A model generated the notes under the pieces. The model searched no databases, was not told where the DNA came from, and saw only the letters and a list, made by a program, of their open reading frames with translations. The position numbers were made by a program, and so were the translations under genes. From Sulfurovum sp. (GTDB lineage Bacteria > Campylobacterota > Campylobacteria > Campylobacterales > Sulfurovaceae), in assembly GCA_030826885.1 (NCBI GenBank), contig JAUUDF010000018.1:415-64414 (forward strand): 64,000 bases of DNA, read 5' to 3'. Shown here one piece after another: positions 3,968-9,632 of this stretch. Position 1 is the first letter of the stretch; each line of letters opens with the position of its first letter.

Positions 3968-4538
3968 GGAACATGTTGTTTTTACAACAGAAGTGAACCG
4001 TTCAAAGTTCATCGCCCATCTTCTGCCCATGGCAGAGGCTGAAGGGTTGCAGGAAAAACTGAAACAGGAACATCCGAAAGCGAACCACGTTGTCTACGCG
4101 TCACGCTACATCAATGCATTCGATCAGATTGTAGAGAAGAGTTCAGACGATGGTGAACCCAAAGGCTGTGCAGGCACACCGGCTCTTAATGTACTTCGTG
4201 GAGAGGAACTTATCAACTGCGTCGTGTTCATTGTCCGTTATTTTGGCGGGATCAAGCTGGGTACAGGGGGTATGGCAAGAGCCTATGCGCTGGCTGTCAA
4301 GAATGTCATAAAGGAAGCCGAACTTGTAGAGTATGAAAAGGAGGTGCTCTATGAGTTTGAAACCGATTACAGCTACATAGACAAAACACTCTATGCGCTA
4401 AAACAGTATGGCATTGTCCGTATCGAGCGTGAGTATGGTGTTGAGAGTGTGAAGTGGAAGATTGTCGGAAGTGAAGAGAAGATAGCAGCATTCACCCAAC
4501 GCTTAGCGCTGGGTAGGGGTTCTAACACACTGTTATAG
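3954..4538 (+). CDS. yigZ: YigZ/IMPACT family protein
   Basis: SKFIA, SDDGEP.G.AG.P and [15 protein letters not shown] motifs. Confidence 0.92.
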
Positions 4539-4874
4539 TGCATCCTCGTCTTCTTCGTCCGTTCTAATACGGATGGTTTTGGATACCTCGGAGACAAAGA
4601 TCTTTCCGTCACCGATCTTGCCTGTTTTGGCGGCTGATTTTATTGCTTCAATGGCTTTGTCGAGATATTCGTCGTTACTGACGACAATTTCAAGCTTGAC
4701 CTTTGGTATGAACTCTACGATATATTCTGCACCTCTGTAAAGCTCAGAGTGACCCTGCTGTCTTCCGTACCCCTTCACCTCGGAAATGGTCATGCCTTCG
4801 ATTCCCGCTTCGACAAGTGCTTCTTTGACATCGTCCAGTTTGAACGGTTTGATAATAGCTTCAATTTTTTTCAT
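4533..4874 (-). CDS. glnK: P-II nitrogen regulatory protein (copy 1, GlnK-type by amt linkage)
   Basis: [14 protein letters not shown]-loop ELYRGAEY (uridylylation Tyr) and [11 protein letters not shown]. Confidence 0.95.
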
Positions 4875-4886
4875 TTACTCTACTCC

Positions 4887-6059
4887 TTAGATAGTGCGTT
4901 TAAATTCCGGGTAGGCTTCCATACCGCATTCGATGGCATCGATACCTTCGAGCTGTTCATCATCTTCGGCACGCAGCTGGAAGACTTTGTTAATACTATA
5001 GATTATAGCAAATGATAGTGGAAAAACAATAGCAGCGACGACCAAAACCCCTTTAAGTTGAGCCATAAAACTTACATCAGCGAAAATACCTACCGCAAGC
5101 GTTCCCCAGATACCGTTAGCCAGGTGAACGGAGAGTGCACCCACCGGGTCGTCCATCTTCAGCTTGTCAAAGAGCGGAACGAAGAGCACAACCAGCGCAG
5201 CACCGACAGCACCGATGAGAATAGGCGTGTAGATATTATACAGATCCGGTCCGGCAGTAACAGCGACAAGACCGCCAAGTGCACCGTTGAGGATCATGGT
5301 GATATCAAATTTTTTGTAGCGGAAGTAGGTAAGCAGCCATGCGGTGATGGCTCCGGCAAGACCGGCTGTGTTGGTATTCATAATGGTCAGTGCCACGGCA
5401 TCGGCATTCTCTTTCGTTGAGATTGCACCCACGGAACCGCCGTTAAATCCGAACCAGCCGATCCAGAGCAGGAATGCACCTAGTACGACCATAGGAATGT
5501 TGGAAGCAGGGATGACTTTGACAGTACCATTCTTTTTATAACGTCCGCGTCTTGGACCCATAATGAGAATGGCAGCTACCAGTGCCCATCCGCCCGTAGA
5601 GTGAATGACGGTCGATCCTGCAAGATCGTGCATACCGGAGATATCAAGAAAAGTACCGGAGAGGAAATTGGCTCCCCATGTGATGTTTACGATGGTAGGG
5701 TAGAGGAAGGCGCCTACTATAACTGTAAAAATTACCAGTGGAATAATACGTGAACGTTCACTGACCCCACCGCTCATAATATTCACGACCTTGCCGACAA
5801 AAGCCATCTGGAAAAGGAAAAAGGCATATTTGTTGATGCTCTCCTGGTGGTCCCAGCTTCCAAAAGCGTATTTGTAGCCGATAAGCAGAAATGACATCGA
5901 TGCGACGGCATAGATCATGGTGTTGACCGTAAGTACAGAGGCCACATTCTTTGTTCTTACCAGTCCGGCCTCAAGCATGGCAAAGCCGGGTACCATCAGA
6001 ATGATGAGGGTCATGGCAAAGAGTGCGAAAAACGTATCGATAACGTAATGCATTTCCAT
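4887..6059 (-). CDS. amt: Ammonium transporter (copy 1, no signal peptide)
   Basis: PGFAMLEAGLVR, DLAGSTVIH, WIGWFGFNGGS and DDPVGALSVH (twin His retained). Confidence 0.95.
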   Translation of the reverse strand: MEMHYVIDTFFALFAMTLIILMVPGFAMLEAGLVRTKNVASVLTVNTMIYAVASMSFLLIGYKYAFGSWDHQESINKYAFFLFQMAFVGKVVNIMSGGVSERSRIIPLVIFTVIVGAFLYPTIVNITWGANFLSGTFLDISGMHDLAGSTVIHSTGGWALVAAILIMGPRRGRYKKNGTVKVIPASNIPMVVLGAFLLWIGWFGFNGGSVGAISTKENADAVALTIMNTNTAGLAGAITAWLLTYFRYKKFDITMILNGALGGLVAVTAGPDLYNIYTPILIGAVGAALVVLFVPLFDKLKMDDPVGALSVHLANGIWGTLAVGIFADVSFMAQLKGVLVVAAIVFPLSFAIIYSINKVFQLRAEDDEQLEGIDAIECGMEAYPEFKRTI

Positions 6060-6093
6060 TATTGTCTCCTAAAACATAAATTATAGATATGTA

Positions 6094-6102
6094 AGTGTAT
6101 CA
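6094..6102 (-). promoter_or_regulatory. Putative extended -10 box (TGaTACACT) of amt copy 1
   Basis: The minus strand reads TGATACACT upstream of the AGGAG RBS; same spacing to the palindrome as at amt copy 2. Confidence 0.5.
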
Positions 6103-6130
6103 GGTAAGCAGATGAAAAGATAGTAAAATT

Positions 6131-6147
6131 TGATTAATAGTTGGGCA
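6131..6147. promoter_or_regulatory. 17-bp operator-like site TGATTAATAGTTGGGCA
   Basis: Variant of TGATTAA-N3-TTAATCA; 31 nt from the -10 hexamer of amt copy 1. Confidence 0.6.
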
Positions 6148-6183
6148 GTAGAGAGAAAATTGTGATGGCTTTAAGTGTCTATT

Positions 6184-6200
6184 TGATTAATTTTTAGGCA
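6184..6200. promoter_or_regulatory. 17-bp operator-like site TGATTAATTTTTAGGCA
   Basis: 15/17 identical to the site at 8077-8093. Confidence 0.65.
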
Positions 6201-6219
6201 TTGTGCCTTTTGTTACCAT

Positions 6220-8007: not shown

Positions 8008-8039
8008 GCTATTTCCTTTATTGATTGATTTCAAGAGGT

Positions 8040-8048
8040 ATGATAACA
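8040..8048 (-). promoter_or_regulatory. Putative extended -10 box (TGtTATCAT) of amtB
   Basis: The minus strand reads TGTTATCAT; 31 nt from the palindrome. Confidence 0.55.
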
Positions 8049-8076
8049 TGAGTGTGTTTTTTTTATTCTACTATAC

Positions 8077-8093
8077 TGATTAATTTTTAATCA
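8077..8093. promoter_or_regulatory. Perfect 7-3-7 palindrome TGATTAA-TTT-TTAATCA, putative operator
   Basis: Directly visible; variants recur at 6131, 6184 and 9540. Confidence 0.75.
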
Positions 8094-8095
8094 AT

Positions 8096-8797
8096 TTATT
8101 GCAGTAAAGGGATTTCAAGTTTGATCGTTTTCTCTCCAAGCGTTGAGCGAATATTACTAGCTTCGGAAAGCTCTTTTATCTCTCCATCCTGGTCGATATA
8201 GCGTCCGTTGGCTGTAATGGAAAGCAAAGCAATCGGTACTCTTTTCTCTTCGATAATGACATGTTCACCCACAAGAAGCTTGAGTTCAATATGTATGGAG
8301 TCGGATGCCCGGAACGATTCAAGTGCCTTTCTGACTATTTTTGAAAAGCGGTTCTGGTCTATTTTAAGATGGGGCATGTCAGGGTCTGTCAGTAATTGAA
8401 GCGGATTGCTGTTTTTTGTTTTAAAGAGTGCAATATTAGCTTCAAGCAGCAGGTTGATATCGGTTGAAGAGAGCTTCTCTTTGTCAACGGGAGCACTGTT
8501 TCTTATGCGCGGTGCATTGTAAAAACGGATGGAAAGATACTCTTCATTCTCATACCCTACCGTAATGGAAAAGAAGTTAAAGGCATCATAGCGCAAAGAG
8601 AGGGCGGTTGTTTTGTATCCGAAATTTTGCGGTGCATAGGCAAGAGCAAGGTCAAAAAGCTCTTTGGTACTTACATATCCCAGCAGGATTTCGGCACTGT
8701 TGTTGAGGTAGAGAATTTTCCCCTGCGGACTAAACAGAATGAATGGATTGTTGTCCCACTCTACAAAGGGTTTAAAATCAATCGATAGCGTGTTCAT
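8096..8797 (-). CDS. PAS-domain protein with degenerate HATPase-like C-terminus (NtrB-like pseudokinase)
   Basis: PAS N-terminus (ILFSPQGKILYLNNSAEILLGY); DINLLLE...DPDMPHLKIDQNRFSKIVRKAL resembles NtrB DPSLP...DPDQIEQVLLNIVRNA; no H-box, N-box or G-box evident. Confidence 0.6.
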   Translation of the reverse strand: MNTLSIDFKPFVEWDNNPFILFSPQGKILYLNNSAEILLGYVSTKELFDLALAYAPQNFGYKTTALSLRYDAFNFFSITVGYENEEYLSIRFYNAPRIRNSAPVDKEKLSSTDINLLLEANIALFKTKNSNPLQLLTDPDMPHLKIDQNRFSKIVRKALESFRASDSIHIELKLLVGEHVIIEEKRVPIALLSITANGRYIDQDGEIKELSEASNIRSTLGEKTIKLEIPLLQ

Positions 8798-9512
8798 GGA
8801 TCTTTTTCCTTAGTGTGTTCCGGTTGATTCCTAGTACTTCAGAGAGTTTGAGCTGTGAGCCGTATTTTTGAAGTCCTACTTTGATAAGCGGTACTTCGTA
8901 GAGGCCAAGATGCTCCTTGTAGCCGTTATTGCCCTCAAGGTGCTCGACAAAATAGCGGTAGAGTGCCGACTTGATCTCCTCTTCTCCCATCTGCTGTATC
9001 ATGAGATGGTAGAAGACTGCACGTCTGAGGCTTTTGCTGTTCATGGTTATATCTGAAGGAATTTCATCGGGTGAAAAGGCATTGTCGTTGAGCATGAGTG
9101 TACGGCAGGCCTCTTTGAGAAACAGCGTTTTCAAATGTTGAAGATCTTCGGGACGCTCTTTGAGAGAGGGCATGGTGTATATGAAAGCAAAAAGAGTATC
9201 GATGGTTTTCTGGTTGCCGACATAGTTGGCAGTAGCGATAATGCGTTTGTTGTCGAAGTCGAGACTCTCTTTGTTTGGCAGTTGTTCAAAGTCAGTAATG
9301 ATGAGCTCTTCCGAATCGTTGAGCAAACGCTCTACAGCCTCCTGATCCTCTCCCGAAACGACCGGCACATCCGGGAAGAGGTGGGTGACCAGACTCTTTT
9401 TCCCGGTATGGGGCTCTCCGATGAGAACGGAGGAGACGAAAAGGGTACGGGTGAGGTTCAGTCCCTGGATGATCTGCTCCACCTCAGGCGAACGTGTATA
9501 AAATGTGTCCAT
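8778..9512 (-). CDS. Fis/NtrC-type HTH regulator with degenerate AAA+ domain and no receiver domain
   Basis: SVLIGEPHTGKKSL (Walker A-like), RIIATAN, MPSLKERPEDL and C-terminal HTH SQLKLSEVLGINRNTLRKKI; no GAFTGA. Confidence 0.8.
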   Translation of the reverse strand: MDTFYTRSPEVEQIIQGLNLTRTLFVSSVLIGEPHTGKKSLVTHLFPDVPVVSGEDQEAVERLLNDSEELIITDFEQLPNKESLDFDNKRIIATANYVGNQKTIDTLFAFIYTMPSLKERPEDLQHLKTLFLKEACRTLMLNDNAFSPDEIPSDITMNSKSLRRAVFYHLMIQQMGEEEIKSALYRYFVEHLEGNNGYKEHLGLYEVPLIKVGLQKYGSQLKLSEVLGINRNTLRKKIHEHAID

Positions 9513-9539
9513 GATGTTATTGGGTTCCTTCCTGCTTGG

Positions 9540-9556
9540 TGATTAAAAAATAATCA
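9540..9556. promoter_or_regulatory. 17-bp operator-like site TGATTAAAAAATAATCA in the regulator leader
   Basis: Lies between the extended -10 TGTTATAAT (9573-9581, minus strand) and the ATG at 9512. Confidence 0.65.
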
Positions 9557-9632
9557 ACTTTGTATTAAAAATATTATAACAAAGTTATGTTAAACTACCT
9601 GCAAGGAAATACTATATTAAGAAGGCAAGCGT

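Follow-up and report, generated by a model that had tools for sequence, protein, structure and literature searches.

A receiver-less NtrC descendant and an NtrB-like protein without kinase parts, predicted to regulate nitrogen genes in Campylobacterota

The 64,000-nucleotide window analysed here, a stretch of one contig from Sulfurovum sp., carries on its minus strand six open reading frames (ORFs) in the order regulator, partner, amtB, glnK1, amt2, and glnK2 (positions 4533 to 9512), the arrangement given by the initial annotation of this DNA. The first two, which overlap by 20 base pairs (bp), encode an NtrC-derived regulator of 244 amino acids (8778 to 9512, minus strand) and an NtrB-derived partner of 233 amino acids (8096 to 8797, minus strand), and named homologs of theirs at 62-72% identity belong to Sulfurovum. 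We report here that this pair is real and widespread, that it represents a form of NtrBC apparently not described before, and that its predicted regulon is well supported. In the account that we favor, and hold to be slightly more probable than its negation, the regulator would bind a 17-bp palindrome near -52 and activate the sigma-70 promoters of glnA and the amt-glnK genes, and the partner would block the regulator when unmodified GlnK signals nitrogen excess. The genome of the window, which is an estimated 89% complete, is called G000; all others are referred to by handles and by codes for family or genus (f, g).

The regulator consists of a shortened AAA+ domain followed by Fis/NtrC-type dimer helices and a helix-turn-helix (HTH), and contains the motifs GEPHTGK, RIIATAN, and PSLKERPED as well as the NtrC/Fis-type HTH segment LGINRNTLRKKI, all of which the initial annotation had picked out. 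As a single sequence it matches only HTH, Fis, and NtrC-tail models in Pfam and NCBIfam. A profile was therefore built from 67 diverse homologs of about 220-270 amino acids. All 67 match the NCBIfam family ntrC (TIGR01818), which is the top family, compared with 43 for nifA and 36, weakly, for FlgR; descent from NifA/NifL or FlgR was rejected since these matches are weaker than those to NtrC/NtrB. By hhalign, the profile aligns with residues 137-468 of Escherichia coli NtrC (probability 98, E 4e-14). This alignment begins past the receiver domain and is gapped at the GAFTGA loop and in two other segments, and the central domain of NtrC1 matches the profile as well (E 1e-12). There was no match to the Pfam receiver domain in the regulator and no GAFTGA-like motif in any of the 67 homologs. 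The regulator descends from NtrC and has lost the receiver, the GAFTGA loop, and the catalytic residues of the AAA+ domain.

About 170 residues of the AAA+ domain remain. Sensor II Arg, Walker B, and the arginine finger are gone: N or D followed by F, I, or L occupies the Walker B position, F-S/A the arginine-finger region, and the residue at sensor II varies. Of the 67 homologs, 63 retain Walker A (GxxxxGK), so that the regulator may bind nucleotide. At the other end of the protein, the Fis-type HTH is matched by domain models, and the C-terminal segment of about 70 residues (dimer helices plus HTH) aligns with Fis, which is the best match among solved structures when close homologs alone are used. 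When 7,993 candidates were scored, the longer relatives of the regulator (at least 472 amino acids) were ordinary receiver-bearing activators at E 2e-20 or weaker; eight of the 22 best of these carry names, seven being GlnG/NR(I) and one a sigma-54 Fis-family regulator. The possibility that we are looking at degenerate pseudogenes was rejected, given 980 regulator and 615 partner homologs kept at constant length. Regulator matches in the Campylobacterota survey described below are also free of internal stops.

The structure model of the partner is confident (predicted local distance difference test, pLDDT, 89.6) and shows a PAS domain connected through a short linker to a HATPase_c fold, with no DHp helices. 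There is no conserved His column among homologs (the best reaches 31%), the N-box Asn is Lys in 29 of 45, the G1 Asp is not conserved, and the F/G2 segment that forms the ATP lid is absent. Both the model and this column conservation agree with the initial annotation, which had read the protein as PAS plus an NtrB-like HATPase remnant without His phosphoacceptor or ATP boxes; the DPxxP..D remnant that it pointed to is DPDMPHLKID. NR(II) is the kinase family matched most often by the homologs (15 of 45, best E 2e-4), and the C-terminal domain of NtrB (1r62) is the top structural match of the model (Z 15.5, root-mean-square deviation 2.6, 121 of 136 residues aligned), with NifL scoring lower (Z 11.4). 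These results support descent of the partner from NtrB, and the partner cannot be a kinase. Full-length members of its family have 210-249 amino acids; a DHp-bearing form was sought and not found among the best 150 matches, in which long matches cover the PAS part only. Searches of PDB sequences with the partner profile returned nothing significant.

Four related 17-bp palindromes lie in intergenic DNA of the window. Those at 9540 to 9556, 8077 to 8093, and 6131 to 6147 are the predicted operators of the regulator, of amtB, and, as the proximal site, of amt2-glnK2, for which 6184 to 6200 is the predicted distal operator; the amtB site is a perfect palindrome (TGATTAA-N3-TTAATCA). A pattern search of the whole genome gave eight matches, of which five are intergenic, namely the four window sites and one before glnA. 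Four intergenic sites genome-wide reach at least 16 bits, against 0.1 in shuffled sequences, and the four best sites in the genome precede amtB, glnA, amt2, and the regulator gene.

Upstream regions of glnA (300 bp) were then searched in 60 of 80 genomes, 49 of 69 with the pair and all 11 of those without it. A first matrix was trained on the four window sites only. With it, a site of at least 12 bits was found before glnA in 39 of the 49 pair-positive genomes but in none of the 11 pair-negative ones; at 10 bits or more the counts are 42 and one. A refined matrix, scored leave-one-out, finds the glnA site in 48 of 49 pair-positive and one of 11 pair-negative genomes. Within a single genus, G398 has both pair and site and five other genomes have neither. 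Using the refined matrix and crude ORF calls, sites of at least 12 bits precede 36 of 47 amt genes that stand first in their operon, compared with 12 of 266 other first-position genes and none of 322 internal genes. The site itself appears to follow the protein: a TGTA half-site accompanies 12 of the 14 regulators with NR[IVAT]T in the helix but one of 33 with NRNT, which makes a shift of operator sequence with the recognition helix of the regulator a suggestive reading of these alignments.

Two observations on individual sites may be added. In G173 and G143, pair-negative genomes of one genus (loci L155 and L157), a half-decayed site lies about 112 bp before glnA and is possibly a relic of a lost regulator. 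Tandem sites 52-54 bp apart, equivalent to five helical turns, make up 13 of 23 neighboring pairs of sites in relatives. The distal and proximal sites of amt2-glnK2 are separated by 53 bp, and this spacing suggests cooperative binding of two dimers.

The position of the sites relative to promoters, which was not used in matrix training, is nearly fixed. In 47 of 49 glnA promoters the distance from the site to the start of a -10 hexamer is 31 or 32 bp, and no other offset accounts for more than seven of the 49. In G000, amtB, amt2, and glnA share this spacing, as do 27 of 40 amt/glnK sites in relatives; in the window the predicted -10 boxes are TATCAT for amtB-glnK1 (8040 to 8045, minus strand) and TACACT for amt2-glnK2 (6094 to 6099, minus strand), each with its operator or proximal operator 31 bp upstream. 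Assuming the usual position of the -10 box, the site is centered near -52, and at this distance from a sigma-70 -10 box it occupies the position of an activator. At the promoter of the regulator-partner operon the arrangement is reversed. There the predicted operator lies 16 bp downstream of the predicted -10 box (TATAAT, 9573 to 9578, minus strand), as it does by 13-17 bp in ten relatives, and is thus in a repressing position.

Earlier reading of the locus had proposed action at sigma-70 promoters independently of sigma-54, and action without sigma-54 is supported here. A search for rpoN in G000 and four complete relatives came up empty, and G000 yielded no true sigma-54 activator; among 55 further pair-positive genomes, rpoN was found in 39 and not found in 16. 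The sigma-54 -24/-12 pattern was absent from the three window promoters and from the 49 pair-positive glnA promoters, its one match being in a pair-negative genome. A generic scan for sigma-70 promoters performed at chance level (12 found, 9.1 +/- 3.6 expected).

In a survey of 401 Campylobacterota genomes, the initial counts were 121 with the regulator and 118 with the partner. Dropped as marginal were the regulator matches in G076, G086, G120, and G228 (E about 1e-4, in long frames) and the partner match in G068, and two extra partner matches covering PAS only were removed before co-occurrence was counted. Regulator and partner are then present in an identical set of 117 genomes, and neither occurs alone. 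The pair is found in nearly all genomes of twelve families, in 14 of 23 genomes of f6, and in one of 118 and one of 158 genomes of f2 and f3, respectively; related genomes are not independent, and these counts are not statistics. A P-II protein is present in all 117 pair-positive genomes. The two genes are adjacent in 42 of them and apart in 75. Among 81 regulator neighborhoods (the window and 80 of 116 other loci), amt is nearby in 38, glnK in 36, and a glnD-like gene in 14. The initial annotation had described a local system for the tandem amt-glnK operons. The conserved sites before amtB and amt2 support the operons as predicted targets, but the description is too narrow for a phylum-wide pair whose predicted regulon includes glnA.

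In quick trees of both genes (made without G054, in which the regulator frame ends early), the same clade of nine members drawn from five families appears, and this suggests that the two genes moved together. The clade comprises G341, G049, G121, G350, and genus g19; at five g19 loci the partner gene is inverted yet still adjacent.

How might such a pair work? Its receiver, GAFTGA loop, His helices, and ATP lid have been lost, and with them the phosphotransfer and sigma-54 parts that the initial annotation had already found missing. Very probably, the regulator binds as a dimer to TG-N13-CA sites; it would activate where the site lies at the fixed distance of 31-32 bp upstream of the -10 box and repress its own promoter, where the site lies just downstream of that box. 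That the partner works in the same pathway as the regulator is a fairly safe assumption. The signal would then enter through P-II: in nitrogen excess, non-uridylylated GlnK would bind the NtrB-type C-terminal domain of the partner, and the complex would block the AAA+ remnant of the regulator, a step proposed by analogy with known systems and to which we give an even chance. In nitrogen limitation, 2-oxoglutarate and GlnK-UMP (uridylylated GlnK) made by GlnD would release the regulator from this block, a proposal for and against which we see the scales as level. A GlnD-like gene was found in G000, with a match below the cut-off. NtrB reportedly binds P-II through its kinase domain, to judge from a title by Pioszak and coworkers of 2000, and its long hairpin is said, by Song and coworkers in 2004, to be the P-II surface.

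The closest parallels are found in two known systems. In NtrBC, nonmodified P-II acts via NtrB to turn NtrC off, according to the accessible portion of PMC6490700. In the GlnK-NifL-NifA system of Azotobacter vinelandii, the accessible portion of PMC12998190 describes stoichiometric binding without phosphotransfer, with the AAA+ domain of NifA binding both the GHKL and the DH domains of NifL. Like NifL and NifA as outlined there, the pair combines a PAS/GHKL protein that does not carry out phosphotransfer with an AAA+ activator that lacks a receiver, and we take NifL-NifA, by analogy, as the best working model. Unlike the pair, NifA carries a GAF domain and is active as a sigma-54 ATPase, and NifL keeps DH helices, a flavin adenine dinucleotide (FAD)-binding PAS domain, and nucleotide binding; GAF domain, GAFTGA, and DH helices were not found in the pair. 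The pair is also closer to NtrC/NtrB, both in family matches and in the structural scores of the partner given above.

Several observations weigh against the mechanism that we favor. The partner has no DH helices, and its interface must therefore differ from that between NifL and NifA as that source presents it. ThkA, ETR1, HK853, and another kinase score within 1 Z unit of the NtrB match, so that the best structural match is tied with other kinases, and the comparison of the partner profile with E. coli NtrB residues 217-290 is weak (E 0.027, probability 1.8), even if it spans DPxxP, the N-box helix, and the long beta-hairpin (NtrB 262-290). The structure model of the regulator is poor (pLDDT 63.5), and its Foldseek matches, whose top rows are mostly enhancer-binding proteins, carry little weight for that reason. 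On the side of the regulon, the pair-negative sample is small, consisting of 11 related genomes, and one of them, G143, shows a near-site of 11.9 bits. No site precedes gltB at any of 12 loci, and gltB was rejected as a regulon member. The covariation of helix and motif amounts to 3-4 independent contrasts, none consistently opposed (sign test p 0.25). P-II occurs without the pair in 43 further genomes. Finally, where the partner gene is not linked to the regulator (40 loci examined, comprising 38 primary loci and 2 second copies), it lies directly behind rpoD, which is not a nitrogen gene, in 37 of the 38 primary loci (L111-L150).

The rpoD linkage invites an explanation with the same regulon and the opposite sign, in which the partner would be a co-activator required by the regulator and P-II would sequester it in nitrogen excess. 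We consider this unlikely, if less so than the other alternatives. Cyanobacteria provide a precedent for sequestration, by P-II with PipX, the coactivator of NtcA. A regulator without catalytic AAA+ residues may need help to activate, and the fact that the two proteins are never apart in presence across the 401 genomes would follow naturally, as would a gene position behind that of the housekeeping sigma factor. That position, however, is lost in the 42 genomes with an adjacent pair, G000 included, and a kinase-like protein bound to P-II is the off signal in NtrB and NifL (accessible portions of PMC6490700 and PMC12998190). The rpoD linkage may mean that the two genes are co-expressed constitutively or that the partner has a functional connection with sigma-70; the gap between rpoD and the partner gene is mostly within about 15 bp.

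A second explanation, to which we assign a marginally smaller and likewise low probability, keeps the regulon and changes the signal: the PAS domain of the partner would sense a small molecule, or P-II or 2-oxoglutarate would act on the AAA+ remnant of the regulator, where Walker A is largely kept. Genomes with P-II and no pair fit this idea, and so does the partner, in which conservation of the PAS half equals or exceeds that of the C-terminal half. Excluding Met1, 8-9 of about 14 near-invariant columns lie in the PAS half (P18, F22, G26, N32, E36, A55, G60, F75, and Y82 are conserved there) and four in the C-terminal half. Against it, the pair is always accompanied by P-II, the C-terminal fold of NtrB, long hairpin included, has been kept despite the loss of ATP binding, and the regulator gene has glnD as its neighbor in 14 loci and glnK nearby in 36 of 81.

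It is very unlikely that the palindrome belongs to another factor and that the 244-residue protein is a Fis-like general DNA-binding protein with an incidental link to nitrogen: although its C-terminal 70 residues are closest to Fis among solved structures (close homologs only), 26-28 of 81 loci have its gene between slyD and fabD at a distance from nitrogen genes, and the operator has the G-N13-C form of Fis sites, the site tracks the presence of the pair even inside one genus (G398 versus five genomes), varies with the recognition helix, is rare genome-wide, and is present at the promoter of the regulator itself. Fis and the regulator do share dimer helices and HTH over about 70 residues. 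Fis, by contrast, has about 98 amino acids and no AAA+ remnant and binds widely, whereas the regulator has its AAA+ segment and few predicted sites.

We return to the reading in which P-II acts through the partner. Put in evolutionary terms, a two-component system would have been converted to an enzyme-free switch before the free-living families of Campylobacterota diverged; a pseudo-kinase would pass the state of P-II by contact to a receiver-less pseudo-ATPase, which activates the housekeeping polymerase from about -52, and the resulting global nitrogen regulator would have been lost in most host-associated lineages. We regard this scenario as just as likely to be right as wrong. The pair shares with proteobacterial NtrB-NtrC the ancestry of both proteins and a 17-bp palindromic site. 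According to the accessible portion of PMC5343134, the core regulon of NtrC consists of glnA, amtB, glnK, and its own genes, the same set as is predicted here for the pair, which probably serves the same core regulon as NtrBC, as far as predicted sites can tell. The pair differs from NtrB-NtrC in lacking receiver Asp, His/DHp, ATP lid, and GAFTGA, in its degenerate Walker B and arginine finger, in the short fixed distance between site and sigma-70 -10 box in place of an enhancer, and in genes that are usually unlinked. By definition it falls outside NtrB/NtrC, since it has none of the receiver, the His, the ATP boxes, and GAFTGA.

Other descendants of enhancer-binding proteins act at sigma-70 promoters, among them NtrC of Rhodobacter capsulatus and Caulobacter crescentus and VpsR of Vibrio. 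The accessible portion of a recent preprint (bioRxiv 10.1101/2023.06.06.543975) reports that the two GAFTGA-less NtrC proteins keep the receiver and need Asp phosphorylation, that Caulobacter NtrC needs Walker A and B, and that its motif resembles Fis and NtrC motifs. VpsR, too, keeps the receiver, so far as these sources go, whereas here the receiver is gone and the partner cannot phosphorylate. FlgS-FlgR belongs to the enhancer-binding-protein family in the same phylum, and 36 of the 67 homologs match the FlgR model weakly; four weak regulator matches in pair-negative genomes sit in frames of 438-460 amino acids, the size of a full-length activator.

To our knowledge, the pair has not been described before; a literature search, with most subscription papers and supplements outside its coverage, found no prior description. 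In its accessible part, a comparative survey of regulons omitted epsilonproteobacteria for want of orthologs of the target factors, NtrC included (PMC5343134), and the genome paper of Arcobacter butzleri remarks on the absence of NtrB/NtrC homologs (PMC2147049). As such papers report the regulators to be missing, nitrogen sensing by chemolithotrophs and diazotrophs of vents, sediments, and aquifers has been an open question. Our analysis names a candidate regulator, partner, operator, and promoter geometry for nitrogen control in free-living Campylobacterota. If the proposed mechanism is true, a two-component system can shed the chemistry of both its enzymes and survive as a protein-protein switch, which would go beyond Rhodobacter/Caulobacter NtrC or NifL-NifA in loss of chemistry.

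The remaining genes of the locus encode two ammonium transporters and two P-II proteins, all of which pass Pfam cut-offs. The amtB ORF (6700 to 8049, minus strand) probably starts at 8007 instead of 8049, given that close relatives have 435 amino acids and that the -10 box sits at 8040-8045. It is followed by glnK1 (6319 to 6660), amt2 (4887 to 6059), and glnK2 (4533 to 4874), all on the minus strand. The best NCBIfam match of Amt2 is to the marine subtype TIGR03644, below its cut-off, and Tyr51 is present in both P-II proteins. An Rfam scan of 3500-11000 found no family. Behind glnK1 lie three related 25-bp hairpins with 40-bp spacing (6220-6244, 6260-6284, and 6300-6324), which may be a REP-like (repetitive extragenic palindromic) repeat or a terminator; a loose hairpin pattern has 10 matches genome-wide, and the loop type is common to just these three.

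Elsewhere in the phylum, the slyD-fabD position of the unlinked regulator gene (L050 and L071-L110; f2, f3, f7, f8, and f11-f14) is one in which its start apparently overlaps the tail of slyD, and in family f6 the regulator gene immediately precedes the glnD-like gene. A gene for a 285-residue protein lies between amt and regulator in f4 and f6 (G000:C26:25697-26554; L051:3072-3935). This protein has no Pfam or NCBIfam match, a soluble N-terminal half, and a hydrophobic C-terminal half; a weak site upstream of its gene (11.3 bits in G000, present in 8 of 13 loci) makes it a candidate for an extra regulon member. Family f9 has an Opr-family porin gene in the corresponding place (L066:7709-9112, L094), with a site that a TATAAT box follows at 31-32 bp. 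The second partner copies of G130 and G153 are located in a nif-like cluster (L144:570-6678, L145:5998-11230) beside genes for NifB-like, homocitrate-synthase-like, SIR2-like, and ClpX-like proteins, with an operator in the divergent gap, and the regulon may therefore extend to nitrogen fixation. In the window, a divergent DUF234 gene occupies 9711-10523, and such a gene adjoins the regulator gene in 13 of the 81 loci.

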